The notes: generated by a model not told the origin, from the sequence alone. Shown: positions 9,075 through 57,892, counted from the stretch's first letter. The stretch is 64,000 nt of DNA from Candidatus Limnocylindrales bacterium (GCA_049521175.1 JBEKPB010000006.1:41296-105295); one strand, 5' to 3'. Numbers and translations are program-made.

Positions 9075-9470
9075 CTAGGGTTTGACCGCCGCCGGGTCGG
9101 CTCCGTGCCACTCCTCGTGGCCCGGCCGCGCGCCATCGAGACCCGCTTCCGCCCGAAGGTGAACGCGCCGGGCGTCGACGGACATCGACAGGCTCTTCTT
9201 GTTGCAGACCTCGACGCATACGCCGCACGCGATGCACGTCAGCTGCTCGATGGCCCAGTAGCGGTCGTCGCGGGAGGCGGTGATGGCGACCGCGGGGCAG
9301 CGCCGCGCGCAGAGCATGCAGAAGTTGCAGGACTCCACGTCGAACTCGATCGTGCCGCGCGCCCCAGCGAAGCGCGGCCGGACCTCGGTCGGGTAGAGGC
9401 GGGTTGCCGGTCGTGAGACCAGGTTGCGGAGCGACCGCCGGACCATGGGCAGGGTGAGGGGATTGGCCAT
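9075..9470 (-). CDS. echF: Ech hydrogenase subunit F (2x[4Fe-4S] ferredoxin, NuoI-like)
   Basis: CNFCMLCARRCP and CIACGVCVEVCN motifs. Last gene of the operon. Confidence 0.8.
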   Translation of the reverse strand: MANPLTLPMVRRSLRNLVSRPATRLYPTEVRPRFAGARGTIEFDVESCNFCMLCARRCPAVAITASRDDRYWAIEQLTCIACGVCVEVCNKKSLSMSVDARRVHLRAEAGLDGARPGHEEWHGADPAAVKP

Positions 9471-9471
9471 C

Positions 9472-10557
9472 TCAGCGCTCCGTGCAGCTGATGCATGGAT
9501 CGATGGTCAGGATGATGTTCGGCACGTCGGCGAGGTCGCAGCCCTTGACCAGCTTGATCATCGCCGGGATGTTGGCGAAGGTCGGGGTGCGAGCCCGGAA
9601 CCGCTCGAGGTTCTTTGTGCCATTGGCCTTGACGTAGTAGAGGACTTCGCCGCGGGGCTGCTCGAGGCGGGTGAACGTCTCGCCAGCGGGCAATCCGCGC
9701 GGGCGGTTCTCGATCGGCTGGCCCTCGCCCTTTGGCATCTTGTCGATCGCCTGGCGGACGATGTCGATCGACTGGTCGATCTCGCGCATCCGGACGAGGA
9801 CCCGAGCGAGGCAGTCGCCGGCGGTCTCGACTACCGGCTCCAGCTCGACTCGATCGTAGAAGTTCGCGCCCAGGAGTCGCGTGTCGGTGGCGATGCCCGA
9901 GGCGCGGGCCATCGGGCCGACAGCATCGACCGCACGCGCGTCCTCGGTCGTCAGCACTCCGACGCCGCCGAGCCGGTGGGCGATCGAGGGATCTGTCCTG
10001 AAGACCCGGGCCGTGTCTTTGAATGCGGCGCCCAGCTCCTGCAGCTGGACGAGGATGGCCGCGAGTTCGGAGTCGGCGATGTCGCGCTTGACTCCGCCGA
10101 TGCGGTTGACCGAGTGGATGATCCGGCCGCCGGTCGTCTTCTCGAAGATGTCGAGGATCTGCTCGCGCATCCGCCAGCAATGCATGAAGAGGTTCTCGAA
10201 CCCGAACGCATCGGCGCCCAAGCCGAGCCAAAGCAGGTGGCTCTGGATCCTCGAGATCTCGGCCCAGATCAGGCGCAGCCAGCCGGCTCGCTCTGGGACC
10301 TCGACGTTCATGATGCTTTCGAGCGAGACGCAGTAACCCATGCCGTGCATGAAGCTGCAGATGCCGCAGATGCGCTCGACCACGAAGCCCATCTCGGTGT
10401 ACTCCACCCGCTCGACCATCATCTCGAGGCCGCGGTGGATGTAGCCGATGGTCGGGATGGCGTCCACGACCTTCTCGTCCATCAGCACGAGGTCGAGCAC
10501 CAGCGGCTCCGGCAGGACCGGATGCTGCGGCCCGAATGGGATGACAGTCTTCTTCAT
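9472..10557 (-). CDS. echE: [NiFe]-hydrogenase large subunit, group 4 (Ech/Coo type, NuoD-like)
   Basis: MKKTVIPFGPQHP start. L1 motif RICGICSFMHGMGY. L2 motif DPCISCTER at the extreme C-terminus with no cleavable extension. 361 aa. Confidence 0.9.
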   Translation of the reverse strand: MKKTVIPFGPQHPVLPEPLVLDLVLMDEKVVDAIPTIGYIHRGLEMMVERVEYTEMGFVVERICGICSFMHGMGYCVSLESIMNVEVPERAGWLRLIWAEISRIQSHLLWLGLGADAFGFENLFMHCWRMREQILDIFEKTTGGRIIHSVNRIGGVKRDIADSELAAILVQLQELGAAFKDTARVFRTDPSIAHRLGGVGVLTTEDARAVDAVGPMARASGIATDTRLLGANFYDRVELEPVVETAGDCLARVLVRMREIDQSIDIVRQAIDKMPKGEGQPIENRPRGLPAGETFTRLEQPRGEVLYYVKANGTKNLERFRARTPTFANIPAMIKLVKGCDLADVPNIILTIDPCISCTER

Positions 10558-11069
10558 GGCTTCTTCACCGCCGCCGCGTTTGCCTTGAGCCGGGCCTTGA
10601 TCGCGGCATGCGAGAAGGGGACCCGGGTCGCGGTCTTGTACAGCTGGCCGTGCAGGTCCAAGCCGATGCCGGTTACGTTGATGCCGAACAGCTCCCGGAT
10701 CTCGTTCTCGTAGAGGAACGCGGCCCCGAAGAGCTCGGATACGCTCGGCACCGCCTCGCCGGCCTCGATCTGCTCGCGAATCGTCTCGAACTCGTTGCCC
10801 CTGGCGAAGGCCCAGGCGATTTCGAAGACGCCGGGCGCCTCGACCGCCGGCGGAGCCACTGGGGCCGATGGCGCGGGCGGGGTCGCCGGCGCGGGTACTT
10901 CGCCGGCCGAGGTTGGCGCGCCAGCCCCCGTGGTCGCGGCTTCGGCCGTCGTCACGTGGCCGTGCGTCCCTGCCGCAGGCGCCACGACCGTCGTGGCGTT
11001 GATGAGGGCCAGACGCCAGCCGGCCTCGTGGTATGCCCCGACTCGGGCGAGGAAAGCGCTGCCGTCCAT
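10555..11069 (-). CDS. echD: Ech hydrogenase subunit D (NuoC-like) with Ala/Pro/Thr-rich insert
   Basis: ENEIRELFGINVTGIGLDLHG NuoC signature. Internal ATG MDGSAFLARV chosen as start. ATGA overlaps with echC and echE. Confidence 0.7.
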
Positions 11070-11494
11070 CAGGCCGTCTTCTTTCGTTTCTCTTCGAGCG
11101 CGGCGATGCCCTCCACGACGCCGTCGATGATGCTTTCGGGGCGCGCCGCGCAGCCGGGCACGTAGACGTCCACCGGCAGCACCTTGTCGATCCCGCCCTG
11201 GATGTTGTAGGCGCGGGCGAAGATGCCTCCGGAGCACGCACACGCCCCGACCGCAACCACGACCTTGGGCTCGGGCATCTGGCGGTACAGGTTCTTCACG
11301 ATCTCGACGTTGCGTTCGTTCACGCTGCCGGTCACGAGCAGGATGTCGGCGTGCTTCGGGTTCCCCGTGTTGATCACTCCGAACCGCTCCACGTCGTAGA
11401 GCGGCGTCAGGCAGGCCAGGACTTCGATGTCGCAGCCGTTGCAGCTCGATCCGTCGTAGTGGAGGATCCATGGTGAGCGGCGGAAGAAGGACAT
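11069..11494 (-). CDS. echC: [NiFe]-hydrogenase small subunit, group 4 (NuoB-like)
   Basis: MSFFRRSPWILHYDGSSCNGCDIE...GACACSGG...VPGCAARPE. Proximal cluster cysteines. 141 aa. Confidence 0.85.
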   Translation of the reverse strand: MSFFRRSPWILHYDGSSCNGCDIEVLACLTPLYDVERFGVINTGNPKHADILLVTGSVNERNVEIVKNLYRQMPEPKVVVAVGACACSGGIFARAYNIQGGIDKVLPVDVYVPGCAARPESIIDGVVEGIAALEEKRKKTA

Positions 11495-11499
11495 CTCGA

Positions 11500-12354
11500 T
11501 CACCGGCCCAGCAGGAATAGAGCGAGCACGTTGCCGCCCGAGAAGACCAGGGTGGCAACCCAGGTGGAGCGCAGGACGAGCTGCCACTTGATGCGCGACG
11601 TGGAGTTGTCGAGCAGGATCTCCAGGGCGTAGGCGACGAGGAAGGCGACCAGACCCAGGGCCACGCTCCAGTTGAAGAGCAGGACCATGAAGGCGCACAG
11701 CAGCGCCGACTCGTACCAGCGTGCCAGCTCGACGTAGGCCAGCAGCCGGCCCGACATGTCGGACTTGAGACCGCTCACGAGCTCCTGGTGGGGGTGGTGC
11801 GACATCGAGATGTCGAATGGCGACTTCCGAAGCTTGATCGTCGCGACCATCAGGAACGCCAGCAGAACGCCCGGCAGCTGTGCGGCCACGAGCTGGCTCG
11901 ACGCAAGGACGCCCTCGAAAGTGTTCGCGCCGGTCACCTTGCAGATGGCGGCCATCATCAGGATGAAGAACGGTTCGGCCGCGAGCAGCACGACGAGCTC
12001 GCGTTCGGCACCGGTGAAGCTATACGGGGAGTTGGCCGACCCGGCGGCGAGGACCAGCAGCAGCGCCGCCAGGGCGAAGACGAACGTCGTGAAGATCAGG
12101 TCTGTGCCGCTCAAGAGCAGCGCGCCGGTGGCGGCCATGAAGATGAGGTGGCCCACCAGGATCGGCTCCATGATCGGGTTGAGCTGCCGCGACTGCTTCT
12201 GCAGCAGCTTGCCGACGTCGTAGAACGGCTGCAGCAGCGGCGGCCCGACACGGCCCTGCATCCGCGCGCTGATCCTGCGGTCCACGCCGGCCACGAGCCC
12301 ACCGAAGATCGGGGCGAGGCCGAGGAAGAGCAGCCCGTAGATCGCCGGGTTCAT
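11500..12354 (-). CDS. echB: Ech hydrogenase membrane subunit B (NuoH/HycD-like)
   Basis: 284-aa polytopic protein from ATG MNPAIYGLLFLGLAPI. ATGA overlap with echA stop. Confidence 0.8.
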   Translation of the reverse strand: MNPAIYGLLFLGLAPIFGGLVAGVDRRISARMQGRVGPPLLQPFYDVGKLLQKQSRQLNPIMEPILVGHLIFMAATGALLLSGTDLIFTTFVFALAALLLVLAAGSANSPYSFTGAERELVVLLAAEPFFILMMAAICKVTGANTFEGVLASSQLVAAQLPGVLLAFLMVATIKLRKSPFDISMSHHPHQELVSGLKSDMSGRLLAYVELARWYESALLCAFMVLLFNWSVALGLVAFLVAYALEILLDNSTSRIKWQLVLRSTWVATLVFSGGNVLALFLLGR

Positions 12355-14288
12355 GGTCGGGCCACCATCCCAACCGTGACCATAGCCACCAGGATTCCGC
12401 CACAGGCGACTGTCCCGGCACGGAACATCAGGGCGCCGTTGATAACCCCGTCGAGGTAGTAGTTGCGGAGGGTCACCTTCTTGATGCCGCCCAGCGCCGC
12501 ACCCATGACGTGGCCTGGGGTGGTGCTGCGACCGCCGGCGTAGAAGTCCGCGTGGTCGTATACGGGATGGCGCCACACCCAGAGGGACAAGAGCGGCAGG
12601 AAGAGCATCGCGGCCATGAGCACGGCCAGCGTCGCTGGGTCCAGGGCGAGGAAAGTGCGGGGTGCGGCGGAGAAGGCGCTGAGTGCGTACGGACCGACGA
12701 CGTGGTCCGAGATGAGGCCGACGCACGCCGCAGCGGCGATCACGCCGATCGCCATCGGGATCTCGGTCGCCCACTCGTAACGCGAGACCCGGCTCTCGAT
12801 CGAGCGTTCGTAGGCGGTCACCTTCCGCGCGGACAGCACCTTCATGAGGAGCTTGCCCCAGTAGAAGATCGTCAGCGAGCTGCCGAACGCCATGATCACG
12901 ACCATCGCGGCGCCGGCGGCGCCGGGCACGAGCAGGAACGCCCGGATGGCGGTCCATTTGGCGATGACGAGCCCGAACGGAGCCACGAACATCCCGGCGA
13001 TGCCGGTCAAGAACAGCGTGCTGATGCGCGGCATAAGGCTCATCAGCGCGTCGAAGTTTTCCATGTTCTTCGTGTAGAGCCGGTTCTCGATGGTCCCAAC
13101 GACCAGGAAGAGCAGGCCCTTGGCCAGGGCGTGGAAGATGATGATCATCACCCCGGCCCACGCCAGCTCCGGCGTCCCGATGCCTGCACAACCGACGATC
13201 AACCCCAGGCTGCCGATCGTTGAATAGGCGAGGACCTTCTTGGTGTTCTGCTCCGTCACGGCTACGAGCGAAACGAAGAGGAACGTCAGCAGCCCGACGA
13301 AAGCCACGAGATAGCCCACCGTCGAACCCGACATAGCCGGGGACAGGCGCAGTAGCAGGAAGACGCCGGCCTTGACCATCGTGCTGGAGTGGAGCAGCGC
13401 CGAGGTTGGGGAAGGGGCGTACATGGCGCCGATCAGCCACGAGCTGAATGGCATCTGCGCGCTCTTGGTGATGCCGGCGAAGGCGAGGAGTGCGATGGCC
13501 GGTAGAAGTGCCGCTCCGGCCGGACCGTGGGTGAGCCTGGCCAGGTCGAGGCCGTCCGCCTGACCCGACAGCCACACGATGGCCAGCCCGAACCCCAGCC
13601 CGCCCAGGAGGTTCATGTTGAGCGCCCTGAAGGCATACCGGACCGTCTCTTCGGTCCGCGTGTAGCCGATCAGCAGGAACGAGCAGATGGTCGTGATCTC
13701 CCAGAAGACCAGCATCATCGGCAGGTAGTTCGACACGACCAGCCCGAACATGCCCGCCAGGAAGACGAACAGCAGTGAGAAGAAGACCGTGCGGCGGCCC
13801 TGGATCATCGGGCTGGCACGGTGGTAGGCCCGCATGTACCCGATCGCGTTGATGCAGATCAGCGGGCCGATGATCCCGACCACGAGCACCATCACCAGCG
13901 AGAGGCGGTCGAACCAGAAGAGCCGCGAGGGGTCCGGCTCGGGCAGGCGGCCGGCCACTTCGAGCCAGACGGAGATGCCCAGCTGGGTGAGGGCCAGGAT
14001 CGGCGCCGGGAACCGGCGATGCATCAGGCTGATCACCACCACGAAGGCGGTGAGCGCGATCTCGACGGCCAGCAGCGCCTGCCCCGGTTCGAGTCCGCCC
14101 GGGAGACCGAAGAAGGCGCCGTCGCCGTTACCGAATGCGACCGCGGCCGCGACCGAGATGGCGGCGACGAGCAATCCGCCAACCACCACGACCGCGTTTC
14201 GGAGCGCGGACGAGGAGATCAGGATCAGGATCGCGCCGACGATCGCGGGCAGCGCGATGAGGGCGGCGACGAGAGAGGGAAGACTCAC
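12351..14288 (-). CDS. echA: Ech hydrogenase membrane subunit A (NuoL/HyfB/Mrp antiporter-like)
   Basis: About 645 aa. Hydrophobic throughout. Proposed GTG start (VSLPSLVAALIALPAIVGA) overlaps the stop of the upstream receiver gene (GTGA). Confidence 0.75.
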   Translation of the reverse strand: MSLPSLVAALIALPAIVGAILILISSSALRNAVVVVGGLLVAAISVAAAVAFGNGDGAFFGLPGGLEPGQALLAVEIALTAFVVVISLMHRRFPAPILALTQLGISVWLEVAGRLPEPDPSRLFWFDRLSLVMVLVVGIIGPLICINAIGYMRAYHRASPMIQGRRTVFFSLLFVFLAGMFGLVVSNYLPMMLVFWEITTICSFLLIGYTRTEETVRYAFRALNMNLLGGLGFGLAIVWLSGQADGLDLARLTHGPAGAALLPAIALLAFAGITKSAQMPFSSWLIGAMYAPSPTSALLHSSTMVKAGVFLLLRLSPAMSGSTVGYLVAFVGLLTFLFVSLVAVTEQNTKKVLAYSTIGSLGLIVGCAGIGTPELAWAGVMIIIFHALAKGLLFLVVGTIENRLYTKNMENFDALMSLMPRISTLFLTGIAGMFVAPFGLVIAKWTAIRAFLLVPGAAGAAMVVIMAFGSSLTIFYWGKLLMKVLSARKVTAYERSIESRVSRYEWATEIPMAIGVIAAAACVGLISDHVVGPYALSAFSAAPRTFLALDPATLAVLMAAMLFLPLLSLWVWRHPVYDHADFYAGGRSTTPGHVMGAALGGIKKVTLRNYYLDGVINGALMFRAGTVACGGILVAMVTVGMVARP

Positions 14289-14671
14289 TCCGCCTCGGGC
14301 AGGAGGTGGTCGATCTCGTCGACCAGGACGTCGCCGATGACCGGCTTTTCCAGATAGCGGCTGACGGGGATCCAGCCGTCGCGGTCCTGGCTGTCCAGCT
14401 GTTCGTCGGAGAGCAGTTCGTCGGCCCGAGTCAGCATGATGAGCGGCAGGTCCGGATGCTCTTGAGCCAACGATTGAGCGAGTTCGATGCCGGACAACTT
14501 GCCGCCGAGCACGGCCTCCAGGACGACGAGATCGGGCATCTCCTCGCGCATGTAGAGGGCCGCTTCGGCAGGGGTCGAGGAACTGGAGACCGAATGACCG
14601 CCGGCCTCGATCGCTTCCGTGGTTCTGGCGACCGAGATCGGGTCGTCGTCGACGATGTGTATGTGAGCCAT
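14285..14671 (-). CDS. Receiver-only response regulator with Glu at the phospho-acceptor position; translationally coupled to echA
   Basis: MAHIHIVDDDP...PDLVVLEAVLGG...LIMLTRAD...LEKPV. DD, T and K are conserved but the LVVLE residue that should be Asp is Glu. The upstream part of the 223-aa six-frame ORF is Arg-rich junk. Confidence 0.7.
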   Translation of the reverse strand: MAHIHIVDDDPISVARTTEAIEAGGHSVSSSSTPAEAALYMREEMPDLVVLEAVLGGKLSGIELAQSLAQEHPDLPLIMLTRADELLSDEQLDSQDRDGWIPVSRYLEKPVIGDVLVDEIDHLLPEAE

Positions 14672-14896
14672 GTGTCCAACTTTTCGGTTGTTTCCGGGCC
14701 ACCTGGGATGGAGAGCGGCTCGGATCTTTGGGACGCTCCTCGCGCGTCTCTCTTCAGCCTCGTCAGCGTATCCAGAGACGAGGCGCCTTGAGCCCCGCGG
14801 TTCGGCCCTTCTGGCCGGGAAATTCGGCCCCCAAGTTCGGGACCGACTTACTTTCCTCGGTAATTTGGGCGCCGCGCCTGACAGAAATGGGCTAGG

Positions 14897-15253
14897 ATGC
14901 GCCGCGTGCATGAGTTTTCGATAGCGGAAGCGATCCTGACCCAGGTCCAGCGCCATGCGCCGGACGATGCCCTGGTGCGCGACGTGTCGATCCGCGTCGG
15001 GGTCCTGCGCGGTCTCGAACCGGAGGCATTGCAGATGTCATGGACCGCGGTGATCGCGGGCACGGCCATAGACGGGGCCACTCTGACGGTGGATCAGCGG
15101 CCGTGGACCATCACGTGCTCCACGTGCGGCCGGAGCTGGACCAGCGCGGTTCCATTCGTAGACTGCGCCTGCGGCAACACGACGCCGGCGCCCACGGGCG
15201 GCGACGAGCTGGATCTAGTCTCGATCACGGTCGACCAGGAGGAAACCAGTTGA
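14897..15253 (+). CDS. hypA: Hydrogenase nickel-incorporation protein HypA
   Basis: Mature-looking N-terminus (M)HEFSIAEAIL (His2). CSTC...DCAC zinc site. True start probably GTG at 14906. Confidence 0.7.
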   Translation: MRRVHEFSIAEAILTQVQRHAPDDALVRDVSIRVGVLRGLEPEALQMSWTAVIAGTAIDGATLTVDQRPWTITCSTCGRSWTSAVPFVDCACGNTTPAPTGGDELDLVSITVDQEETS

Positions 15254-15921
15254 GCGGTCAGACGCGGACCGTCCGCCTTCCGGTGGTGGAGCGCATCCTC
15301 GAGGCCAACGACGGGATCGCCTCTTCCATCAGGGCGGAGCTGGCGCGCCGGGGCATCTTCGCGATCGACCTGATCGGGGCTCCGGGGAGCGGCAAGACGG
15401 CGCTGCTGGAAGCCACTCTGCGTTCGCTCAAGGGTCGCCGGAAGCCTGCCGTGCTCGTGGGCGACCTCACGACCAGGCGCGACGGCGACCGGCTGGCCCG
15501 CTGGTGCGACCGGGTCGTCCAGATCTCGACCGGTGAAGGCTGCCACCTCGAGGCCGTCCAGGTTCGGGACGCGTTGGGCGGGATCGATCTCGAGGGAGTG
15601 GATCTCCTCTTCGTCGAGAACGTGGGCAACCTGATCTGCCCGGTCGGTTTCGACCTGGGTCAGAGTGTCAAAGTTGGTCTGTTCAGCCTGACCGAGGGCG
15701 ACGACAAGGCCGCCAAGCACCCCTACCTGGTTACGGCCGCGGACCTGATCCTGCTCAATAAGATCGACCTGGCTCCACATCTGACCTTCGACCGGTCCCT
15801 CTTCGAGGCGGACGTCCGATTGCTCAATCCCGACGTGCCGATCCTGGGCATCTCCTCGACCACCGGCGAAGGGCTCGACGCCTGGCTCGCCTGGCTCGAC
15901 CGTCGGGCGGCAGGAGACTGA
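15250..15921 (+). CDS. hypB: Hydrogenase maturation GTPase HypB (no N-terminal His/Cys metal-binding stretch)
   Basis: GAPGSGKT P-loop, ENVGNLICP, LNKIDL. TTG start 15250 with AGGAGGA upstream. Overlaps hypA stop. Confidence 0.8.
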   Translation: MSGQTRTVRLPVVERILEANDGIASSIRAELARRGIFAIDLIGAPGSGKTALLEATLRSLKGRRKPAVLVGDLTTRRDGDRLARWCDRVVQISTGEGCHLEAVQVRDALGGIDLEGVDLLFVENVGNLICPVGFDLGQSVKVGLFSLTEGDDKAAKHPYLVTAADLILLNKIDLAPHLTFDRSLFEADVRLLNPDVPILGISSTTGEGLDAWLAWLDRRAAGD

Positions 15922-20117: not shown

Positions 20118-21685
20118 CTTAGAGCCTGAGAACCAATCGTATTGGGCAAAGGCGGGCGATTGGATCAGGCTTTCGCGAAGTTGATCGGGGAGCGGGACCA
20201 TCGAGATGTTGTCCAGACACGGCCCGCGGCGCAGTGGAGCGACGGGGGTGGCGATGGTGACGTTCCGCCCCGGGTGCCTCGCGTCAGGCGGCGCTGGCCG
20301 CTGAGCGCAATGCCGCTGTCCGCATGAGGTTGTGAGCCAGGGCGAACCAGAGGAGCACGGCTCTGGCCTTCGCCCTGCCTCGGACGCCGAAGCGCTGCAG
20401 GCCTCGATTGCGGGCGATGGCGTTGACGCACTCGGCGGTGGCGGCCCGGTCTTTGTAGATCTCCTTCGCTTGCGGCGTGCCCATCCGAGTGCGCCAGTCG
20501 GCAACGGCGGGCGAGTCCGATGGAAGCGGCAGATACGGGTCGCGACCCCGGACCTCAGGGGTGCGGACTGGCAGGTAGAGGGTCGTGCCGGCTTCGGGGG
20601 CAGCGAACTCCTCGATCTCGGCGCTGGCCAGAAAGCCGGCGTCGGCGAGCCAGGCGCCTGGTGCGCGGCCGTATCTCGTGCGTAGCTGGCGAACCATCGG
20701 GCCAAGCTGGCCTGATCGGTGCCAGCGTTGGTCAGGTCCAGTCCGACGATGACCTGGCTGCCCGTATCGGTCACGAGCTGGGCGTTGTATGCGGGTCTCC
20801 AGCCGCCGTCGGCCATCTTCATGACGCGGGCCTCCGGATCGGTTGTGGAGGCCCGGGCATCCTCTGGGGGCTTGCCGCGCTTGGCGTTGCGCTTCTTGGC
20901 GGCTTCGAGTGCCGGCAGATGGGCGAGAGCATGTCGAACCCTCTCGGCCCGCTCTCGTGTGGCCCGCTCTCTCGCTGCGGCGACCCGCCGACTGCTTGCA
21001 CCCGGGTCGTCATCGAGTTCGTTCTTGAGGGCGCGGACCTGGGCATCGGCTTGTGCGAGGAAGCGCTCGAGTCTGTCTCGGCGGCGGTATGAAGCCGCAC
21101 CTGCGGCTGCTCGGACCCGGACGCCGTCCTGGGCGACCGCGACCATGGTCACCAGGCCATCGGCCAGGAGCGCCGCGACGCTCTCTGTGAGGAGCCGATC
21201 GAGGACATCGGCGTGCTCGACCCGGAACGCCGCGAGGGTGTGATAGTTGAGCCCGACCCCGCCGGCAAGCCAGCGGTATCCATCGTGCTCCTCACACAGC
21301 CGGTCGAGCGCCCTGGCGCTGCCGACGCCTTCGAGCGTCGCGTACAGCCACAGCGCCACGAGGATTGCAGGATCGATCGGTGGCCGTCCCGGATGGCCCT
21401 CGATTGCCTTGATGCGCGTATACAGCGGCGTGAGATCGAGCCCCTCCACGAAGGCCCACACGAGGCGAGCCCGATGGTCGGGGCCGAGGAGGCCGTCGAG
21501 ATCGACCGAACGCAGCTCGAGCTGGCCCCGGTTCGGTAGCTGGAGGCGCGGTACGCCTGCCGCCTCCTGGTGCTCGTCTGGCTCGGCGAGTGGGAGTGCG
21601 AAGAGAGTGTCGTCCATGCCGAGAATCGTAGCTGCGAGGAGGTCGGCTGGGAATCCCTGAAACCAATAGATTCACAGGCTCTTAG
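20118..21685. mobile_element. IS1182/IS5-family insertion sequence (about 1.57 kb) with imperfect terminal inverted repeats
   Basis: Left end cttagagcctgagaaccaatcgtattgg at 20118-20145. Right end ccaatagattcacaggctcttag at 21663-21685. The ends match 16/19 positions as an inverted repeat. Encodes one transposase. Confidence 0.65.
20284..21617 (-). pseudogene. IS1182/IS5-family DDE transposase, split by a frameshift near 20.69 kb
   Basis: N-terminal frame LAEPDEHQ...RLQLPNRGQLEL...TDPEARVMKMADGGWRPAYNAQ. C-terminal motifs LADAGFLASAEI...KEIYKDRAATAECVNAIARNRGLQRFGVRGRAKA are in another frame (20284-20697). The six-frame ORF 19761-21617 reads through into merR antisense. Confidence 0.65.
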
Positions 21686-50875: not shown

Positions 50876-52225
50876 GTGGTTCCGCGGACCGGACGAACCC
50901 CAGACAGTGCGACTCGGCCCTTCGGATCGGCCACCGACCCGGTTATGGTTCGGGGCGTGAGCCTCGCAGCCGGCATCCGTTCCCTGGCCGGGGCGATGCA
51001 CGCGCCCAAAGTGTCCAGGTGGCTCAAGGTGGTGGGTCCGGCCTGGGTCGTGATGCTGGCGGACGTCGATGCGCCGAGCGTCATCACCGCGGGCAAGGGC
51101 GGCACCGAATCCGGGTACGCCCTTCTTCTGCCCGTCTTCGCGATCGTCCCGATCCTGTTCCTGGTCCAGGAGATGACCGCGCGCCTCGCGCTCGCGACGG
51201 GCAAGGGCCACGCCGAGCTGGTGCGGTCGCAGTACGGAGCGCGCTGGGCGGCCGTTTCGGTCGTCGGGATGGCGGTCATCAACTTCGTGGCCTACGTCGC
51301 GGAGTTCGCCGGCATCGCCCTGGGCGCGGCGATCGTCGGGATTCCCGCTCCGCTGGCCATCATCGGGGCCCTGGCGATCCACGCGTCGATGGTCCTGACC
51401 GGCAGCTACACCCTGTTCGAGCGGCTTGCCCTGGCGCTGTCGCTGGCGCTCTTCAGCTTCGTCGTGCTGGCGGTTGCCGGCCGCCCGGATCTTGCCCACC
51501 TGGTCTCGGACCTCAGCCCGCTCCCGAGCGACGTGCCGCACGACTACTTCGCGCTCGTGGTGGCGATCATCGGGGCCTCGATCATGCCCTGGATGCTCTT
51601 CTACCAGCAGTCGGCGAGCGTCGACAAGAAGCTTCGCCGGGAGGACCTGCACAGTTCGCGGGTAGAGACCCTCGTGGGTGCGTTCGCGAGCCAGGCGCTC
51701 ATGGCGGCGATAGTGATCGCGGCGGCTGCGGCGATGAAGTCGGCCGCGCCCGTCCCGGCCTCCGCCACTAACCTGGCCGACCTTCCCGAGGGCCTGGCCC
51801 GACTGGCCAGCGGCGGCGCCGGGTGGCTGATCGCGATCGGGCTCATCGGCTCGGGCCTGCTGGCGCTGGTCGTGGTTTCTCTTTCGGCGGCCTGGGGGAT
51901 CGGCGAGGTGATGGGCTGGCCGCGCAGCCTCAACCTCAAACCCAGCCAGGCCCGCCACTTCTACGCCGTCTACCTGGTCGAGGTCCTGCCCGCGGCCGCG
52001 GTCGTGCTGATCTCGCGCGACCTCGTCAGGCTGTGCGTCGGCTCGATGGTCTTCAATGTGATCGTCCTGGCGCTGCCCCTGGCATTCCTGGTCCGGTTGA
52101 CGAGCGACCGAAAGCTGCTCGGCGATCTCGCCAACTCGCGCCCCCGGGCTGCGCTCCTGTGGGTCGTGACTGCTCTCCTGCTTGGCGCGGGCATCCTAGG
52201 GATGGTCCAGTACCTGACGGGTTAA
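50876..52225 (+). CDS. mntH: NRAMP-family divalent metal (Mn2+/Fe2+) transporter
   Basis: VVGPAWVVMLADVDAPSVITAGKGG consensus. 11-12 TM. True start probably internal (MHAPKVSRWL at 50996). Confidence 0.8.
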   Translation: MVPRTGRTPDSATRPFGSATDPVMVRGVSLAAGIRSLAGAMHAPKVSRWLKVVGPAWVVMLADVDAPSVITAGKGGTESGYALLLPVFAIVPILFLVQEMTARLALATGKGHAELVRSQYGARWAAVSVVGMAVINFVAYVAEFAGIALGAAIVGIPAPLAIIGALAIHASMVLTGSYTLFERLALALSLALFSFVVLAVAGRPDLAHLVSDLSPLPSDVPHDYFALVVAIIGASIMPWMLFYQQSASVDKKLRREDLHSSRVETLVGAFASQALMAAIVIAAAAAMKSAAPVPASATNLADLPEGLARLASGGAGWLIAIGLIGSGLLALVVVSLSAAWGIGEVMGWPRSLNLKPSQARHFYAVYLVEVLPAAAVVLISRDLVRLCVGSMVFNVIVLALPLAFLVRLTSDRKLLGDLANSRPRAALLWVVTALLLGAGILGMVQYLTG

Positions 52226-52227
52226 CC

Positions 52228-52300
52228 CTGGGGGCCGGGGTTCGGGCCGGGACGGGGGCCGGGTTCGGGCCGGGGTTCGGGCCGGGGTTCGGGCCGGATG
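52228..52300. repeat. G-rich 12-bp tandem repeat (gggttcgggccg)n directly after NRAMP stop
   Basis: ggggccggggttcgggccgggacgggggccgggttcgggccggggttcgggccggggttcgggccgg. Confidence 0.75.
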
Positions 52301-52435
52301 GGGACGCGGCGCCCGGCGATGTCCGGGCCCGGTGACGCGTCGCGGATCCGAGGCGCGTGGCCTTCGCTGCCGAGATCGGAGCCGGCGGACGCCCTGCTGG
52401 GTTGTGACGTGCGCCCTCGCTCGTGGGGGCCGAAC

Positions 52436-52545
52436 TGCGTGGCCCTCGCTGCCTGGTCCGGGCGGGCTGTATTGCGTGGCCGTCGCTGCCTGGTCCGGGC
52501 GGGCTGTATTGCGTGGCCGTCGCTGCCTGGTCCGGCCGGGCCGCC
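52436..52545. repeat. 37-bp tandem repeat tgcgtggccgtcgctgcctggtccgggcgggctgtat, 3 copies
   Basis: Units 52436-52472 and 52473-52509, then a partial variant. Confidence 0.8.
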
Positions 52546-52714
52546 GGTCCGTTCTAGCGCGACAGTCACCCCAGTAATCGTATGCGCGGTCTCGGCCCCA
52601 TCGGGCGGGTTCCTGGGCATACAGGCTGGAAATTGTTGGTCGGACCACGCTCGGGACCGGCCTCGGCAGGCTTCGGTGGCCGGCTGGCCTCGTCCATTGC
52701 CGCAGGGCCATTGC

Positions 52715-52745
52715 ATAGCATTTCCGGGACTGCTATCGCGGAAAT
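52715..52745. promoter_or_regulatory. Nested palindromes ATAGCA..TGCTAT / ATTTCCG..CGGAAAT in intergenic region upstream of cPGS-like/argF/arcC operon
   Basis: Seen directly. Preceded by direct repeat ccattgc x2. Locally AT-richer. Confidence 0.35.
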
Positions 52746-52755
52746 TCGTCAGGGC

Positions 52756-52930
52756 CGGGAGGCCGCGAGGCGGGAGCTGGGATGCCGAGACGCGGGACGC
52801 CGAGACGCGGGAGGCGGGGAGCCGAGACGCGGGAGGCGGGGGCGCCGGGAGGCCGAGACACGCCGGGACGTCGGGACGCCGGGAACCGCGCGCCGCGAGC
52901 GGGGAGGCCGGGACGCGGGAGGCGGGGAGG
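52756..52930. repeat. Purine-rich degenerate tandem repeats (gccgagacgcgggaggcgggg-like units, about 6 copies)
   Basis: Copies at 52783, 52799, 52821, 52852, 52904. Confidence 0.65.
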
Positions 52931-53109
52931 AGCGCGGCCGTCGCGGGTTGGTGCGCGGCTCGGATGGGCTCTTGCGCGGCAGACCCGGCCAGACGACACT
53001 ATCGCTTGCTCCACGACCGCTGGACCAGAGGCGGAACCGGCTCGTGAGCCCAAGGTTCGCTGCCGGGACAGACCCTACGGCGCGACCGCGGAAGGGCCGG
53101 GCAATCACC

Positions 53110-54483
53110 ATGGACCGTACCCGTGTTGCCATCATGGGAGCCGCCGGTCGCGACTTCCATGACTTCAATGTCGTCTACCGCAACGACCCGAGCGTCGAGG
53201 TCGTGGCGTTCACCGCCGCGACCCAGATACCGGGGATCGCCGGGCGGTTCTACCCGGCCGAGCTGGCCGGGCCGCTCTATCCGAACGGCATCAAGATCGT
53301 GGCCGAGGTCGAGCTCGAGCAGGTGATCGCCGCCGACCGCGTCGACCTCGTCGTCTTCGCCTACAGCGACGTCGCCCACGAGCACGTGATGCACACCGCC
53401 AGCCGGGCGCTCGCCAGCGGAGCCGACTTCGAGCTGCTCGGGCCGGCACGCACCATGCTGCCGAGCTCGAAGGCCGTGGTAGCCACCGGTGCAACGAGAA
53501 CCGGCGCGGGCAAGAGCCAGACCACTCGCTACCTGGCGGCCTTGCTCGAGAAGCAGGGTCTCAAGGTGGTGGTCGTGCGCCATCCCATGCCCTACGGCGA
53601 CCTCGTCGCCCAGCGGGTCCAGCGCTACGCCACTTACGCCGACCTCGACCGCCACAACACCACGATCGAGGAGCGCGAGGAGTACGAACCGCACCTCGAC
53701 GCGGGCCGGGTTCTCTACGCTGGCGTCGACTACGAGGCGATCCTGCGCCAGGCCGAGGCCGAGGCGGACGTCGTCATCTGGGACGGCGGCAACAACGACT
53801 TCCCGTTCTACCGGCCTGACCTGTTTGTCGCTGTGGCCGACCCTCTCCGAGCCGGTCACGAGCTGCACTACCACCCGGGCGAAACCAACCTCCGTCTGGC
53901 CGACGTGGTGGTCATCAACAAGGTCGACTCGGCGACGCCGGAGCAGATCGCCGAGGTTCGGGCCAACGTCGCGGCGATGAACCCGAGGGCCCGGGTCATC
54001 CTGGCCCGCTCGACGCTGACACTGCACGGCGGCGCCATCGCCGGCAAGCGAGTGGCGGTCGTCGAGGACGGCCCGACTCTCACCCACGGCGGCATGACCT
54101 ACGGCGCCGGCGTCGTCGCCGCCCGTCGGTTCGGGGCGGCCGAGCTGGTCGATCCCGTTCCGTACGCGTTCGGTGAGCTCGCGGCTACGCTGGCCCGCTA
54201 TCCCGCCCTGGAGCACTTGCTCCCGGCCATGGGCTACGGCCAGGGCCAGATGCATGAGCTCGAGGCGACGCTCAACGCCATGCCGGCGGACCTGGTTCTC
54301 TCGGCCACGCCGATCGACTTGACGAGGGTACTCAAGCTGGAGAAGCCGGTCGTTCGCGTCCGCTACGAGCTGGAAGAGCTTGCGGGCGACGCGGCCGGGC
54401 ACGAACAGTCGAACCTTACGGAACTTCTCGCTCCGATCGTCGAGCGGGCGCGAGCCGGCTCGAACTCGGCAGTGCGCCGCTAG
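53110..54483 (+). CDS. COG2403 / cyclic 2,3-diphosphoglycerate-synthetase-like P-loop protein
   Basis: 457 aa. Walker A ATGATRTGAGKSQTT. First gene of operon with argF and arcC. Confidence 0.65.
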   Translation: MDRTRVAIMGAAGRDFHDFNVVYRNDPSVEVVAFTAATQIPGIAGRFYPAELAGPLYPNGIKIVAEVELEQVIAADRVDLVVFAYSDVAHEHVMHTASRALASGADFELLGPARTMLPSSKAVVATGATRTGAGKSQTTRYLAALLEKQGLKVVVVRHPMPYGDLVAQRVQRYATYADLDRHNTTIEEREEYEPHLDAGRVLYAGVDYEAILRQAEAEADVVIWDGGNNDFPFYRPDLFVAVADPLRAGHELHYHPGETNLRLADVVVINKVDSATPEQIAEVRANVAAMNPRARVILARSTLTLHGGAIAGKRVAVVEDGPTLTHGGMTYGAGVVAARRFGAAELVDPVPYAFGELAATLARYPALEHLLPAMGYGQGQMHELEATLNAMPADLVLSATPIDLTRVLKLEKPVVRVRYELEELAGDAAGHEQSNLTELLAPIVERARAGSNSAVRR

Positions 54484-54497
54484 CCGGAGAGATCGTC

Positions 54498-55439
54498 ATG
54501 ACGCGCCATCTCCTGACTTTGGATTCCCTGGGGCGGGACGGGATCCTCGCCAACCTGGATCTCGCCGCCCGCCTCAAGACCGCCAAGGGCATGGCCCGCG
54601 AGGCTCTTGCCGGTGGACGGGTCGGGCTCATATTCGACAAGCCGTCGACGCGGACGCGAGTCAGCTTCGAGGCCGCGGCGTGGGGCCTGGGCATGCTGCC
54701 CATCACGCTCCGGCCCGACGAGCTGCAGCTCGGCCGCGGCGAGACCATCGCCGACACGGCGAGAGTCCTGTCGCGCTATCTCTCGGCGGTCGTGATCCGA
54801 ACCTTCGAACAGGCGAAGGTCGAGGAGCTGGCGCGTTACGCCACGATCCCGATCATCAACGCCCTGACCGACGACCACCATCCATGCCAGGCTCTCGCCG
54901 ACGTGATGACCCTCCAGGAGGAATTCGGGGAGCTGGGCGGGTTGCGAATGGCGTTCATCGGCGACGGCAACAACGTCGCCCACTCGCTGATCGAGGCGGC
55001 CGGATACCTCGGCTTCACCCTGGCCATCTCGACGCCGGAGGGCTACGAACCGAAGCCCGAGATCGTCGAAGCAGCACGGGTCAACTGCCGGGTCAACGGC
55101 GGAGCCATCGAGCTGAGCCACGACGTTCGGGCGGCGGTGCGCGGTGCCGACGCCGTCTACACGGACGTCTGGGCGAGCATGGGCCAGGAGAAGGAACGTG
55201 AGGAGCGGGCCCGGATCTTCGCCGGGTACTGCGTCAACGCCGAGCTGATGGCGCTCGCGGCGCCCAAGGCGATCTTCCTCCACTGCCTGCCGGCCCACCG
55301 CGGCGACGAGGTGACCGACGAGGTCATCGACGGGCCGCAGTCGAGGGTCTGGGACGAGGCCGAGAACCGTTGGTACACCGAGCAGGCTCTGCTCTACATG
55401 CTCATCACCGGCGAGAACCGCCCGGATAGGTTGGGATGA
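54498..55439 (+). CDS. argF: Ornithine carbamoyltransferase (or related catabolic carbamoyltransferase)
   Basis: STRTRVSFE, HPCQALAD, HCLPAHRG motifs. 313 aa. Confidence 0.85.
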   Translation: MTRHLLTLDSLGRDGILANLDLAARLKTAKGMAREALAGGRVGLIFDKPSTRTRVSFEAAAWGLGMLPITLRPDELQLGRGETIADTARVLSRYLSAVVIRTFEQAKVEELARYATIPIINALTDDHHPCQALADVMTLQEEFGELGGLRMAFIGDGNNVAHSLIEAAGYLGFTLAISTPEGYEPKPEIVEAARVNCRVNGGAIELSHDVRAAVRGADAVYTDVWASMGQEKEREERARIFAGYCVNAELMALAAPKAIFLHCLPAHRGDEVTDEVIDGPQSRVWDEAENRWYTEQALLYMLITGENRPDRLG

Positions 55440-56404
55440 CCCGCCTGGCAATAGCTCTCGGTGGCAACGCCCTGATACGTCGCGGCGAGGCGGGCTCGAC
55501 CGAGGTCCAGCGCCACAACCTGGTGGCGGCGGCGCGGGGCCTGGTCACGCTGGCCGAGGGCAGCCGGGCCGAGATCGTGCTGACCCACGGCAACGGCCCG
55601 CAGGTCGGCTTTCTGGCGATCGGCGCCGAGATGGCCTCCTCGGTCGTACCGGCGCCGCCGCTGGACGTCCTTGGCGCGGAAACCCAGGGCCAGATCGGCT
55701 ATCTGCTGGCTCAAGCGCTCAACGACGCATTCCTGGAACGTGGCCGCCACCGTGAGATCGCGGTCGTAGTCACGCGGACTGTCGTCCCGGCCGACGACCC
55801 GGCATTTACCAACCCCACCAAGCCCGTCGGCCCCATCTACGACGAAGCCACGGCAAAGGAGCACGCGGCAACCCGCGGCTGGAGCGTTGCCCCGGACGGC
55901 AAGAACTGGCGGCGCGTCGTCCCGTCGCCCCCTCCGGTCCGGATTGTCGAGGCCAAGGCGATCCGTTCGCTGGTCGATTCGGGCGTGCTCGTCGTCGCCT
56001 CCGGGGGTGGGGGAGTGCCGGTAATCGAGCTACCCGATGGGCGCTATGAGGGCGTCGAGGCGGTGATCGACAAAGATCTTGCGGCGGTCGTCCTGGCCCG
56101 GTCCGTGGATGCCGACGGGCTGGTTCTGCTGAGCGACGTCGACGCCGTCTACCGCCGCTGGGGCACGCCCCGTCAGGAGGCGATCCTGCGACTTTCCGTG
56201 GACGAGGCGTTCGAGGGTCTCGCCGCCGGCGCGTGGCCGTCGGGCTCGATGGCCCCGAAGGTCCGCGCCTGCGCCGAGTTCGTCAAGGGCGGTGGCCGTT
56301 TCGCCGCCATCGGCGCCCTCGAAAACGCGGTGGCCATCGTCAAGGGCAGCTCCGGCACGTGGTTCGGCACGGACTCAGTCGGCCTTCCCCGCCGCGCGGC
56401 CTGA
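55436..56404 (+). CDS. arcC: Carbamate kinase
   Basis: IALGGNAL...VLTHGNGPQVG...VASGGGGVPV motifs. ATGA overlap with argF. Confidence 0.9.
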   Translation: MTRLAIALGGNALIRRGEAGSTEVQRHNLVAAARGLVTLAEGSRAEIVLTHGNGPQVGFLAIGAEMASSVVPAPPLDVLGAETQGQIGYLLAQALNDAFLERGRHREIAVVVTRTVVPADDPAFTNPTKPVGPIYDEATAKEHAATRGWSVAPDGKNWRRVVPSPPPVRIVEAKAIRSLVDSGVLVVASGGGGVPVIELPDGRYEGVEAVIDKDLAAVVLARSVDADGLVLLSDVDAVYRRWGTPRQEAILRLSVDEAFEGLAAGAWPSGSMAPKVRACAEFVKGGGRFAAIGALENAVAIVKGSSGTWFGTDSVGLPRRAA

Positions 56405-56439
56405 GCCTGGGTTCGTGATGAGCGGCCTCGGGGCGGGGC

Positions 56440-57006
56440 TCAGCCCTTGTCGCTCGGGAACGTGCCGAAGCCGAGGCGCGCGCTGAACTTCTCTGCGAAC
56501 TCGGCCCGGACGTTGTGGAGCTCCTCGCGGGATATGTCCAGCTCGCTGGCGATCTCGTCGAGGGTGGCGCTCTCATTGCCGCTTATTGCGTCGTCGGCGG
56601 CACAGACTCGGAAACAGGCTCGCAGCACGATCAGCCGCTGCTCCATAGTCGAGAGCTCGCGGAACTCGCGGGTCACGAGATAGTCGCTCGTGCCGCCCGC
56701 GGTCTTCTCCTGGAGCTTGGCCATCTCCACGACGAGGACCGCCTGCGACTGATCGAGGCCGGAGGTGGCTAATTCCTGCTCCATCGCGTCGGTCTCGGCC
56801 TCGCTGATCTCCATGTCCGCATACGCCGCTCGAGCCAGGACGTAGGCCATGCCGGCCAGCATCCGGGCCTTGTCGGGCGGAAGAGCCTCGAGCCTGGCGA
56901 CGATGTGCCTGACTGCCTCCGTTTCGGACGCGAGCGATGAAGGCGCCGGGGCCTCGGCGCTCGCCGGATAACCGGGACGGCTGCCCAGAAAGCGCATGAA
57001 GGACAC
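56440..57006 (-). CDS. TerB-like (tellurite-resistance TerB/DjlA N-domain family) protein
   Basis: 188 aa. Two TerB-like helical repeats with acidic residues (DMEISEAETDAMEQEL; DDAISGNESATLDEIASEL). Confidence 0.5.
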   Translation of the reverse strand: MSFMRFLGSRPGYPASAEAPAPSSLASETEAVRHIVARLEALPPDKARMLAGMAYVLARAAYADMEISEAETDAMEQELATSGLDQSQAVLVVEMAKLQEKTAGGTSDYLVTREFRELSTMEQRLIVLRACFRVCAADDAISGNESATLDEIASELDISREELHNVRAEFAEKFSARLGFGTFPSDKG

Positions 57007-57055
57007 GGATTCTCCTTGCTTGTTCGTCGCGGTCGGGCCATCGGCCGGCGCGCGG

Positions 57056-57892
57056 TCAGGCGTGAGTGAAGAGGAGGTGCAGTTCCATGATGCCGTGGTC
57101 GTCCACGGAGAGGACGGAGAAGCTGTTCGGCTTCTGGATCGAGTAGTCGGAGAAGACGATCGGCAGCGTCCCGGTCACGGCGATGATGCCGCGCTGCCGG
57201 ACCGCCTGCAAGGAGATCGTCACGCTCTTCGTAATGCCATGGAGGGTGAGCGCTCCAGTGGCGTTGACACTGACCACTTTGCCGTCGGCGGGTAGCGTGC
57301 CGAGGTCCATCGGTTGGGAGAGCTTGAAGGTCGAGGTTGGGAAGTTGTTCGTCTCGATGGCCTGGGTCTTGAGCTGACCGTCACGCTGGTCGTTGTCGCT
57401 GTGGAGCGCGGTCATGTCGACCGTCATCTGGACGTTGCTGACCTGGGCCCCGGTCAAGGTCATCGATCCGGTGACACCGGTCGATCGGCCGACTGCTGTG
57501 TGGCCGCCAACGCCCACGAGCTGCTCCTGCACTCTGAAGCCGGCGAACGAGGCCGTGCCATCGCCGACCGTTCCCATGCTGGTGTCGACGTTCCAGGTTC
57601 CGTCGAGCGTGGCCGGTGCGGGCAGGGCGGCGCCGGCGGGGATTGCGGGAGCCCCCGCGTTGACCGCCCCCGGCGCGCTCGGGCCGATCAGGATGTACCA
57701 GAGACCGTAGCCACCGGCCGCGATTCCGGCGATGACCACTACTGCAATAGCTACCAGCAGAATGTTCCGGTTGCGGTGGGATCTGGCTGGCAGGGGGCGG
57801 GATTGCGGTTGCACACTCATGGCGCGGACCTCAGGTGCGGGACAAGCCCGGGCGGGTCCGAGGCGCGGACTCGTTGGCGAAGGTACGGTCAA
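57056..57892 (-). CDS. YceI-family protein with N-terminal membrane anchor
   Basis: TM LLVAIAVVVIAGIAAGGYGLWYIL then YceI-like beta-barrel (DGTWNVD...ASFAGFRV...HGITKSVTI). Start may be internal (MSVQPQ). Confidence 0.7.
   Translation of the reverse strand: MTVPSPTSPRLGPARACPAPEVRAMSVQPQSRPLPARSHRNRNILLVAIAVVVIAGIAAGGYGLWYILIGPSAPGAVNAGAPAIPAGAALPAPATLDGTWNVDTSMGTVGDGTASFAGFRVQEQLVGVGGHTAVGRSTGVTGSMTLTGAQVSNVQMTVDMTALHSDNDQRDGQLKTQAIETNNFPTSTFKLSQPMDLGTLPADGKVVSVNATGALTLHGITKSVTISLQAVRQRGIIAVTGTLPIVFSDYSIQKPNSFSVLSVDDHGIMELHLLFTHA

Follow-up and report, generated by a model that had tools for sequence, protein, structure and literature searches.

The genes at 53110-56404 of a 64,000-nucleotide stretch from a Candidatus Limnocylindrales bacterium (GCA_049521175.1 JBEKPB010000006.1:41296-105295; the whole stretch is called the window below) probably form an arcE-arcB-arcC operon that encodes the arginine synthetase pathway. 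In this pathway a P-loop enzyme, ArcE, would convert arginine to citrulline in place of the hydrolytic arginine deiminase ArcA, and an ornithine carbamoyltransferase (OTC) and a carbamate kinase would carry out the following two steps. The three genes are as follows.

53110-54483, plus strand: arcE-like gene for a 457-amino-acid (aa) P-loop protein, a predicted arginine synthetase (ATP-forming arginine deiminase), assigned from its open reading frame (ORF) and family motifs.
54498-55439, plus strand: arcB/argF, predicted OTC of 313 aa, preceded by a GGAGAG Shine-Dalgarno sequence and assigned with the NCBIfam OTC models.
55436-56404, plus strand: arcC, predicted carbamate kinase of 322 aa, assigned with NCBIfam and overlapping the arcB stop by 4 bp (ATGA).

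A spacer of 14 bp separates arcE from arcB, and arcC is predicted to be translationally coupled to arcB through the ATGA overlap. Downstream of arcC lies a TerB gene in convergent orientation. Although the arcE ORF is open upstream to 52582, the GC content of this extension is flat over the codon positions (0.75/0.71/0.74 vs 0.73/0.45/0.88 inside the gene), and the start was therefore placed at 53110. The extension (52582-53109) was ruled out as coding sequence on this ground, and so was a 249-aa ORF at 52298-53047. The arcE-OTC-carbamate kinase block is kept in ~40 independent peat and soil metagenome contigs as well as in several metagenome-assembled genomes (MAGs), which indicates that it is not an accident of assembly.

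A preliminary description of this stretch had singled out the three genes as one unit, and the co-directional arrangement, the short gap, the overlap and the recurrence of the block bear this out. It had also correctly recognized that the first product carries a Walker A motif (GAGKSQTT) and is related to the cyclic 2,3-diphosphoglycerate (cDPG) synthetase (cDPGS)/predicted-GTPase group (COG2403), that neither arcA nor arcD is nearby, and that the locus is not the classical arginine deiminase pathway. A Pfam scan of the ~60 ORFs across the 64 kb, which cover 53 kb upstream and 7.6 kb downstream of the operon, detected no arginine deiminase/amidinotransferase or amino-acid permease domain, and no arcA/arcD-type domains were found in the related loci L001-L004 and L086-L088. 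While the oddity of the three-gene set is thus real, the interpretation attached to it did not hold. The locus had been likened to ygeW/yqeA-type modules, with the transcarbamylase substrate left open and the role of the P-loop protein regarded as unknown, whereas an explanation had been published in 2024, when the P-loop family was characterized as ArcE (PMC11032458).

The characterized enzyme is TK2200 of Thermococcus kodakarensis, which catalyzes the Mg2+-dependent reaction L-arginine + ADP + Pi <-> L-citrulline + NH3 + ATP (Michimori, Yokooji, Atomi, PNAS 2024; PMC11032458). It was formerly a hypothetical protein with homologs annotated as "putative GTPase" and with distant similarity to cDPGS, and was named ArcE or arginine synthetase. 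According to the same study, ArcE takes the place of ArcA in arcC-bearing genomes, its gene is found near arcB/arcC in some genomes, and the family is distributed over many bacterial phyla including Chloroflexi and a few eukaryotes (PMC11032458). In the window operon, ArcE (53110-54483) would turn L-arginine, ADP and Pi into L-citrulline, NH3 and ATP, replacing the hydrolytic ArcA. The OTC (54498-55439) would then phosphorolyse citrulline to ornithine and carbamoyl phosphate, and the carbamate kinase (55436-56404) would pass the phosphate to ADP, yielding a second ATP together with NH3 and CO2. The net gain would be two ATP per arginine instead of one. The lack of arcA would be explained because ArcE fills its place. 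The ArcE paper puts forward no chemical mechanism (PMC11032458). Our suggestion is that phosphate may attack the carbon of the guanidinium group, so that citrulline would arise in an O-phospho-isourea form, from which the phosphoryl group would then be transferred to ADP. The intermediate is suggested by likeness to the P-loop amidoligases CTP synthase and dethiobiotin synthetase, both of which are among the weak fold or sequence matches of the 457-aa protein.

The 457-aa protein has a Walker A motif RTGAGKS at residues 130-136 (GAGKS at 132-136) followed by QTT, but no dedicated Pfam or NCBIfam family: Pfam gave only a weak partial cobW match and NCBIfam gave nothing. It contains the family motifs RHPMPYG, EEREEYEP, WDGGNNDFPF and EDGPTLTHGG, and retains all positions that are invariant or nearly so in an alignment of 30 family sequences. 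Homologs with 57-82% identity were found in 80 species of more than 10 phyla; the groups represented include Chloroflexota, Acidobacteriota, Actinomycetota (Intrasporangiaceae), Caldiserica, Bathyarchaeia and Aciduliprofundum. The homologs in Intrasporangiaceae, Acidobacteriaceae and Caldiserica genomes are 57-64% identical to the window protein, and a haloarchaeal plasmid homolog is 59% identical. A search of 1.84 billion cluster representatives returned 3530 relatives at E <= 0.001, counted as clusters at 50% identity, and 617 at E <= 1e-30. Eukaryotic members were seen in a Thalassiosira diatom and the ichthyosporean Creolimax fragrantissima (P0150, P0166), which agrees with the remark on eukaryotes in PMC11032458.

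The link to the characterized family was judged via crenarchaeal and bacterial homologs of genera named in the ArcE paper (PMC11032458). In a later paper, the authors took homology to TK2200 at BLASTP E <= 1e-10 as their criterion for ArcE. The homolog of Hyperthermus butylicus (P0296), the only one found in that species, shares 49% identity with the window protein over 423 aa (E 3e-144), and Hyperthermus is among the genera listed as arcE-bearing (PMC11032458). Homologs of Pyrodictium occultum and Ignisphaera from the same search showed a similar degree of relatedness. The AlphaFold2 model of the 457-aa protein had a high mean confidence (pLDDT 92.7), and a Foldseek search with it gave cDPGS as the best solved fold (15-16% identity, TM 0.45), then LpxK (4ITN/4EHY), E ~4e-8. 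LpxK 4EHY was also superimposed by the authors on their model of TK2200p (PMC11032458). By these comparisons the 457-aa protein belongs to the ArcE sequence family and is no cDPG synthetase, and as an ortholog in a bacterium it would share the ArcE activity.

Pfam assigned OTCace_N and OTCace to the 313-aa protein, which scored 393.5 bits against the OTC equivalog TIGR00658 (cut-off 280.85) and 413 bits against NF001986 (cut-off 306). The four OTC motifs, of which HPCQ and HCLP had been pointed out in the preliminary description, are present: STRTR at 50-54, HPCQ at 128-131, DVWASMG at 223-229 and HCLP at 262-265. In the OTC family, STRTR and HPxQ are the carbamoyl-phosphate motifs and DxxxSMG and HCLP the ornithine motifs. 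The best solved relative in the PDB is the OTC of Pyrococcus furiosus (1A1S, 323 bits), compared with lower scores for putrescine carbamoyltransferase (PTC, 197 bits), N-acetylornithine carbamoyltransferase (AOTC, 121-123 bits) and aspartate carbamoyltransferases (<=108 bits). Since the OTC cut-offs are passed, all four motifs are present and the P. furiosus enzyme is the closest PDB match, the protein is, as judged from its sequence, a standard OTC, and its substrate is ornithine/citrulline and not really open. A grouping with anabolic ArgF does not discriminate between the possible readings of the locus, since the short OTC type found here also serves the archaeal ArcE pathway. The 322-aa protein is likewise predicted to be the carbamate kinase ArcC; it scored 364.3 bits against TIGR00746 (cut-off 358.25) and 367.6 bits against NF009008 (cut-off 361), and its closest PDB entry is the P. 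furiosus carbamate kinase 1E19 (285 bits).

A gene-neighbourhood survey of COG2403 homologs, also proposed earlier, was carried out on 80 species-level loci, in which OTC and carbamate kinase genes were sought within 6 kb of the arcE homolog. One or both were present in 23 of the 80 loci, and both in 12; when the count is limited to the 69 loci whose downstream sequence extends for 2.5 kb or more, 21 carried OTC and/or carbamate kinase. These neighbours were almost always on the same strand and directly downstream of the arcE homolog. The linked loci came from Aminicenantes, Acidobacteriota, Clostridia, Fidelibacterota, Caldiserica, Actinomycetota, Myxococcota, Bacteroidota and Neomarinimicrobiota. 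An arginyl-tRNA synthetase gene (argS) was found near arcE in 13 further loci, in 12 of which it is co-directional and 28-562 bp upstream. These 12 argS-arcE loci belong to Anaerolineae-type genomes (L020, L028, L029, L032, L040, L046, L053, L055, L059, L064, L067, L084) and have no OTC or carbamate kinase gene nearby. The arginyl-tRNA synthetase linkage is an independent tie of the ArcE family to arginine, and across phyla the family is linked with OTC, carbamate kinase and arginyl-tRNA synthetase. The remaining loci, mostly from Anaerolineae, showed housekeeping synteny with NusB, Asp23, FabD/FabG, TatC, CoaD and Obg.

Several arrangements in the survey deserve separate mention. A 766-aa protein (P0125; L085 134-2434) consists of an N-terminal carbamate kinase, with 40% identity to the window kinase and 314 bits on a carbamate kinase model, and a C-terminal ArcE part. 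The fusion may be real or a frameshift artefact, and it was counted as weak evidence because it was seen on one short contig only, a single 2.8-kb Logan contig. On a Salinirubellus megaplasmid (NZ_CP147842.1; L154 8001-9341), the homolog and an annotated arcC are neighbours in divergent orientation. Hyperthermus butylicus and Pyrodictium occultum both encode a conserved 422-423-aa protein with no Pfam family directly upstream of the arcE homolog (L155 4668-5939, L156 4642-5910); the two copies share 54% identity, and the idea that the 423-aa upstream gene is an ArcE paralog was rejected.

Some points weigh against placing the arginine synthetase pathway in this operon. The orthology to TK2200 runs through an indirect chain of homologs that are named in the paper at the genus level, and no Thermococcales entry appeared among the matches listed in the homolog lists and cluster look-ups for the 457-aa protein. 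No assay of a bacterial ArcE was found in the literature searched, and the two ArcE papers found there characterize the T. kodakarensis enzyme only. The public NCBI annotation of the 457-aa protein is cyclic 2,3-diphosphoglycerate synthase. Since both OTC and carbamate kinase are missing from the neighbourhood in 57 of the 80 homolog loci, the family may also serve other roles or work in other directions. An arginine/ornithine transporter gene is not part of the operon, and the absence of arcA, like the presence or absence of argG/argH and carAB, was judged on the 64-kb window. Finally, the sequence alone does not fix the direction of flux.

The main alternative is that the same enzymes work in reverse. 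In such an aspartate-independent route from ornithine to arginine, the kinase would make carbamoyl phosphate from NH3/CO2 and ATP, the OTC would form citrulline, and ArcE would add free ammonia with ATP, replacing ArgG/ArgH. Several gene arrangements would fit this route. In the 12 Anaerolineae-type genomes the position of arcE downstream of the arginyl-tRNA synthetase gene hints that ArcE may serve arginine supply there. In the Limnocylindria relatives L005 and L006, arcE and OTC genes occur with no carbamate kinase gene nearby, although the L005 contig ends ~150 bp past the OTC gene. The OTC itself belongs to the short type, and biosynthetic OTCs are among the closest relatives of that type. 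The enzymology would also allow it, as ArcE is reversible and supports arginine synthesis from citrulline in vivo, and the authors suggest a biosynthetic role where argG/argH are lacking (PMC11032458). On the other hand, the measured equilibrium lies toward deimination (delta-G0' -6.8 kJ/mol; PMC11032458), and the carbamate kinase of T. kodakarensis was unable to supply carbamoyl phosphate in vivo (PMC13260591). No other arginine-biosynthesis gene was found within the window. A co-transcribed carbamate kinase, as predicted here, is the classical signature of a catabolic pathway. Because of this co-transcription and the equilibrium, we infer a catabolic direction of flux, and regard biosynthetic use of the window operon as unlikely.

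Another view is that ArcE and OTC mainly feed carbamoyl phosphate to pyrimidine synthesis and [NiFe]-hydrogenase maturation, with the kinase draining the surplus. This role has been demonstrated genetically in T. kodakarensis (PMC13260591). The window contains a complex-I-like/group-4-type [NiFe]-hydrogenase module (9075-14702, minus strand), which comprises subunits of 49 kDa, with a NiFeSe part at the N-terminus, and of 20 kDa, together with an antiporter-like subunit and a ferredoxin, and which is adjoined by a HypB/CobW-type GTPase gene (15040-15921, plus strand). The module is relevant here since in T. kodakarensis the ArcE pathway supplies carbamoyl phosphate for the maturation of [NiFe] hydrogenase (PMC13260591). 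However, the hydrogenase genes are ~38 kb away with no visible co-regulation, and the role matters in organisms that lack carbamoyl-phosphate synthetase (carAB). We consider carbamoyl-phosphate supply improbable as the main function; it is a physiological nuance that is compatible with the arginine synthetase pathway and not a different mechanism.

The reading that the operon serves as a catabolic module for a carbamoyl compound of a different kind (putrescine/agmatine, oxamate or a ygeW-type substrate), and that leaves the P-loop protein unexplained, would suit the lack of arcA and the lack of a Pfam/NCBIfam family for that protein. YgeW/YqeA and PTC modules likewise combine a transcarbamylase and a carbamate kinase in the absence of arcA. 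The 313-aa protein, however, meets the OTC cut-offs and misses the models of the other transcarbamylases by wide margins: 287 bits against a cut-off of 500 for PTC (TIGR04384), 176 against 288 for AOTC (NF003384) and 74.5-78 against 453-500 for YgeW, which contradicts the earlier ygeW/yqeA-type comparison. The ornithine-binding DxxxSMG and HCLP are present, so the enzyme is predicted to be a standard OTC, not one of the knotted YgeW type or a PTC, and its partner would be ArcE, as opposed to the agmatine deiminase or purine-catabolic enzyme of the PTC and YgeW modules. TK2200p was inactive on agmatine, guanidine and D-arginine (PMC11032458). Such a module is very improbable.

The remaining alternative follows from the database name of the first protein. 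An identical protein (P0001) in Candidatus Limnocylindrales (Chloroflexota) MAGs is called "cyclic 2,3-diphosphoglycerate synthase" by NCBI and "predicted GTPase" by JGI, and RefSeq/PGAP uses the former name in bacteria, haloarchaea and Thermoproteota, even for genes that adjoin arcC. The cDPGS of Methanothermus fervidus (8ORK/8ORU; PMC10690619) shares with the window protein a two-domain plan, in which an N-terminal alpha/beta domain is joined to an LpxK-like P-loop domain, as well as a Walker A and a Walker-B-like motif. The sequence similarity is low, however: phmmer gave a partial match of 26 bits restricted to residues 214-316, and the family profile gave partial matches of 56-70 bits. 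In the P-loop of the M. fervidus enzyme (GTGKRVGKT), K145 and R146 bind 2,3-diphosphoglycerate (PMC10690619); in the profile alignment these residues correspond to T131 and G132 of the 457-aa protein, two positions that hardly vary within the ArcE family, so that the substrate-binding pair is not conserved. The aligned parts of cDPGS lack RHPMPYG, EEREEYEP, WDGGNND and DGPTLTHGG, and its genomic context and host range differ from those of the window protein. That the first gene encodes a true cDPG synthetase making a thermoprotective solute, with the OTC and kinase genes adjacent by coincidence, is hardly credible despite the NCBI name and the top-ranking solved fold, in view of the 15-16% identity, the lost substrate-binding residues, the recurrence of the arginine-related linkages in many phyla, and the report of cDPG from hyperthermophilic methanogens only. 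The RefSeq name is misleading for ArcE-family proteins and looks like a systematic misnomer.

The arginine synthetase pathway predicted for the window resembles the ArcE-ArcB-ArcC system of T. kodakarensis in its ArcE-family P-loop protein, which has the same fold neighbours (LpxK and, more distantly, cDPGS), in its short-type OTC and carbamate kinase, and in the absence of arcA (here, from the window). The two differ in that the T. kodakarensis genes are scattered (TK2200, TK0871, TK2158) whereas the window genes form one tight operon, which is preceded by a lineage-specific conserved 5' leader. T. kodakarensis is a hyperthermophilic archaeon, while the present host is a mesophilic, high-GC Candidatus Limnocylindrales bacterium. 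With the classical arcABC(D) pathway of Pseudomonas aeruginosa and Halobacterium salinarum, the predicted pathway would share the OTC and carbamate kinase steps and the overall conversion of arginine to ornithine, two NH3 and CO2 with substrate-level ATP formation. In contrast, the classical first step is catalyzed by the hydrolytic ArcA, which has an amidinotransferase fold, while the P-loop enzyme would conserve energy at this step and raise the yield from one to two ATP per arginine. The classical pathway usually has an arcD antiporter as well, and the window has no arcD gene. The operon is most likely an additional bacterial example, from Candidatus Limnocylindrales (Chloroflexota), of an already described pathway.

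Two conserved features were found immediately upstream of arcE.

52972-53001, plus strand: promoter-like hexamer pair, TTGCGC and ACACTA/CACTAT, separated by a variable spacer of 17-18 nt and proposed from its conservation only.
53006-53093, plus strand: conserved 88-nt non-coding leader, a candidate cis-regulatory element that ends 16 nt before the arcE start.

In an alignment with five diverged relatives, both hexamers are invariant, while neither the spacer between them nor the sequence upstream of the pair shows conservation. This pattern points to a promoter at 52972-53001, from which transcription would probably start and run through the leader. Neither sigma-70 consensus promoters nor intrinsic terminators were found over 52000-57200.

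Copies of the leader were collected by applying a covariance model (R1) to metagenome contigs recovered with a 22-nt pattern. The model located the leader in another 40 metagenome contigs, and in all of those that include the downstream sequence it lies 10-15 nt ahead of arcE; a weak match of the model in L022 was dismissed as it lies inside an ORF. Its mean identity to the window was 86%, compared with 59% at the third codon positions of arcE and 55% further upstream. The difference from these comparison sites shows that selection acts on the nucleotide sequence itself. A GTG-initiated extension of the arcE product through the leader was rejected, as the GTG lacks conservation and the frame is interrupted by indels. 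The leader had no match in Rfam even at E <= 10, and an Rfam scan of the operon gave nothing relevant. Two hairpin domains were predicted; in the alignment fitted to the model, 97% of the cells are paired, with compensatory change at only 4 pairs. Single-sequence folding gave no thermodynamic signal (z-score of the minimum free energy, -0.42). Support for a defined RNA fold, as modelled, is thus weak. With the palindrome CTGGNCCAG inside the leader, an operator bound by a protein is just as possible. The leader is a real conserved element that may act through either. It is conceivable, though unlikely, that it is a cis-regulatory RNA of a kind not yet described, either riboswitch-like or bound by a protein, through which the energy-conserving arginine pathway is adjusted to arginine/citrulline or to the adenylate charge; if so, arginine catabolism would have its first element of this sort.

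Further upstream, an Nramp-like gene (50876-52225, plus strand) is separated from arcE by 884 bp with no coding signal and with tandem repeats. Only the last ~135 bp of this spacer before arcE are conserved, and its length in relatives ranges from 165 bp to 2.8 kb. The repeats, at 52226-52950, comprise 5.6 copies of the 12-mer GGGCCGGGGTTC, 2.9 copies of a 37-mer at 97% identity, and degenerate GGGACGCCGAGACGCGGGAGGCGG-type units; the near-identical strain L002 differs from the window in the spacer by one 37-bp repeat unit. The encoded transporter carries DAPS and MPW, whereas canonical metal-transporting Nramps carry DPGN and MPH, and it scored 107 bits against the MntH models (cut-off 430). 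By motif and score it is predicted to be a divergent Nramp-family transporter. Its membership in the operon as a fourth gene is unproven, as it is linked to arcE in close relatives only and over a spacer of such variable length. Other ORFs recognized by Pfam in the window include dnaG, rpoD, leuA, a HIT protein, pyruvate phosphate dikinase, the complex-I-like hydrogenase module and major facilitator superfamily transporters. A fragment of a DDE transposase (137 aa) is encoded at 20284-20697 on the minus strand.

The value of the present assignment lies mainly in annotation, since in public databases the 457-aa protein and hundreds of its relatives go under the names cyclic 2,3-diphosphoglycerate synthase or predicted GTPase. 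This label would hide a fermentation route with two ATP per arginine in Chloroflexota that are widespread in soil, peat and freshwater. The conserved leader offers a handle for studying the regulation of the pathway. The argS-arcE pairs, as well as the arcE-OTC pairs without a kinase gene, point to organisms in which the enzyme may run biosynthetically. The tight operon in a mesophilic bacterium and the recurrence of the gene linkage across phyla support the claim made in 2024 that the pathway is general and not an archaeal curiosity (PMC11032458).

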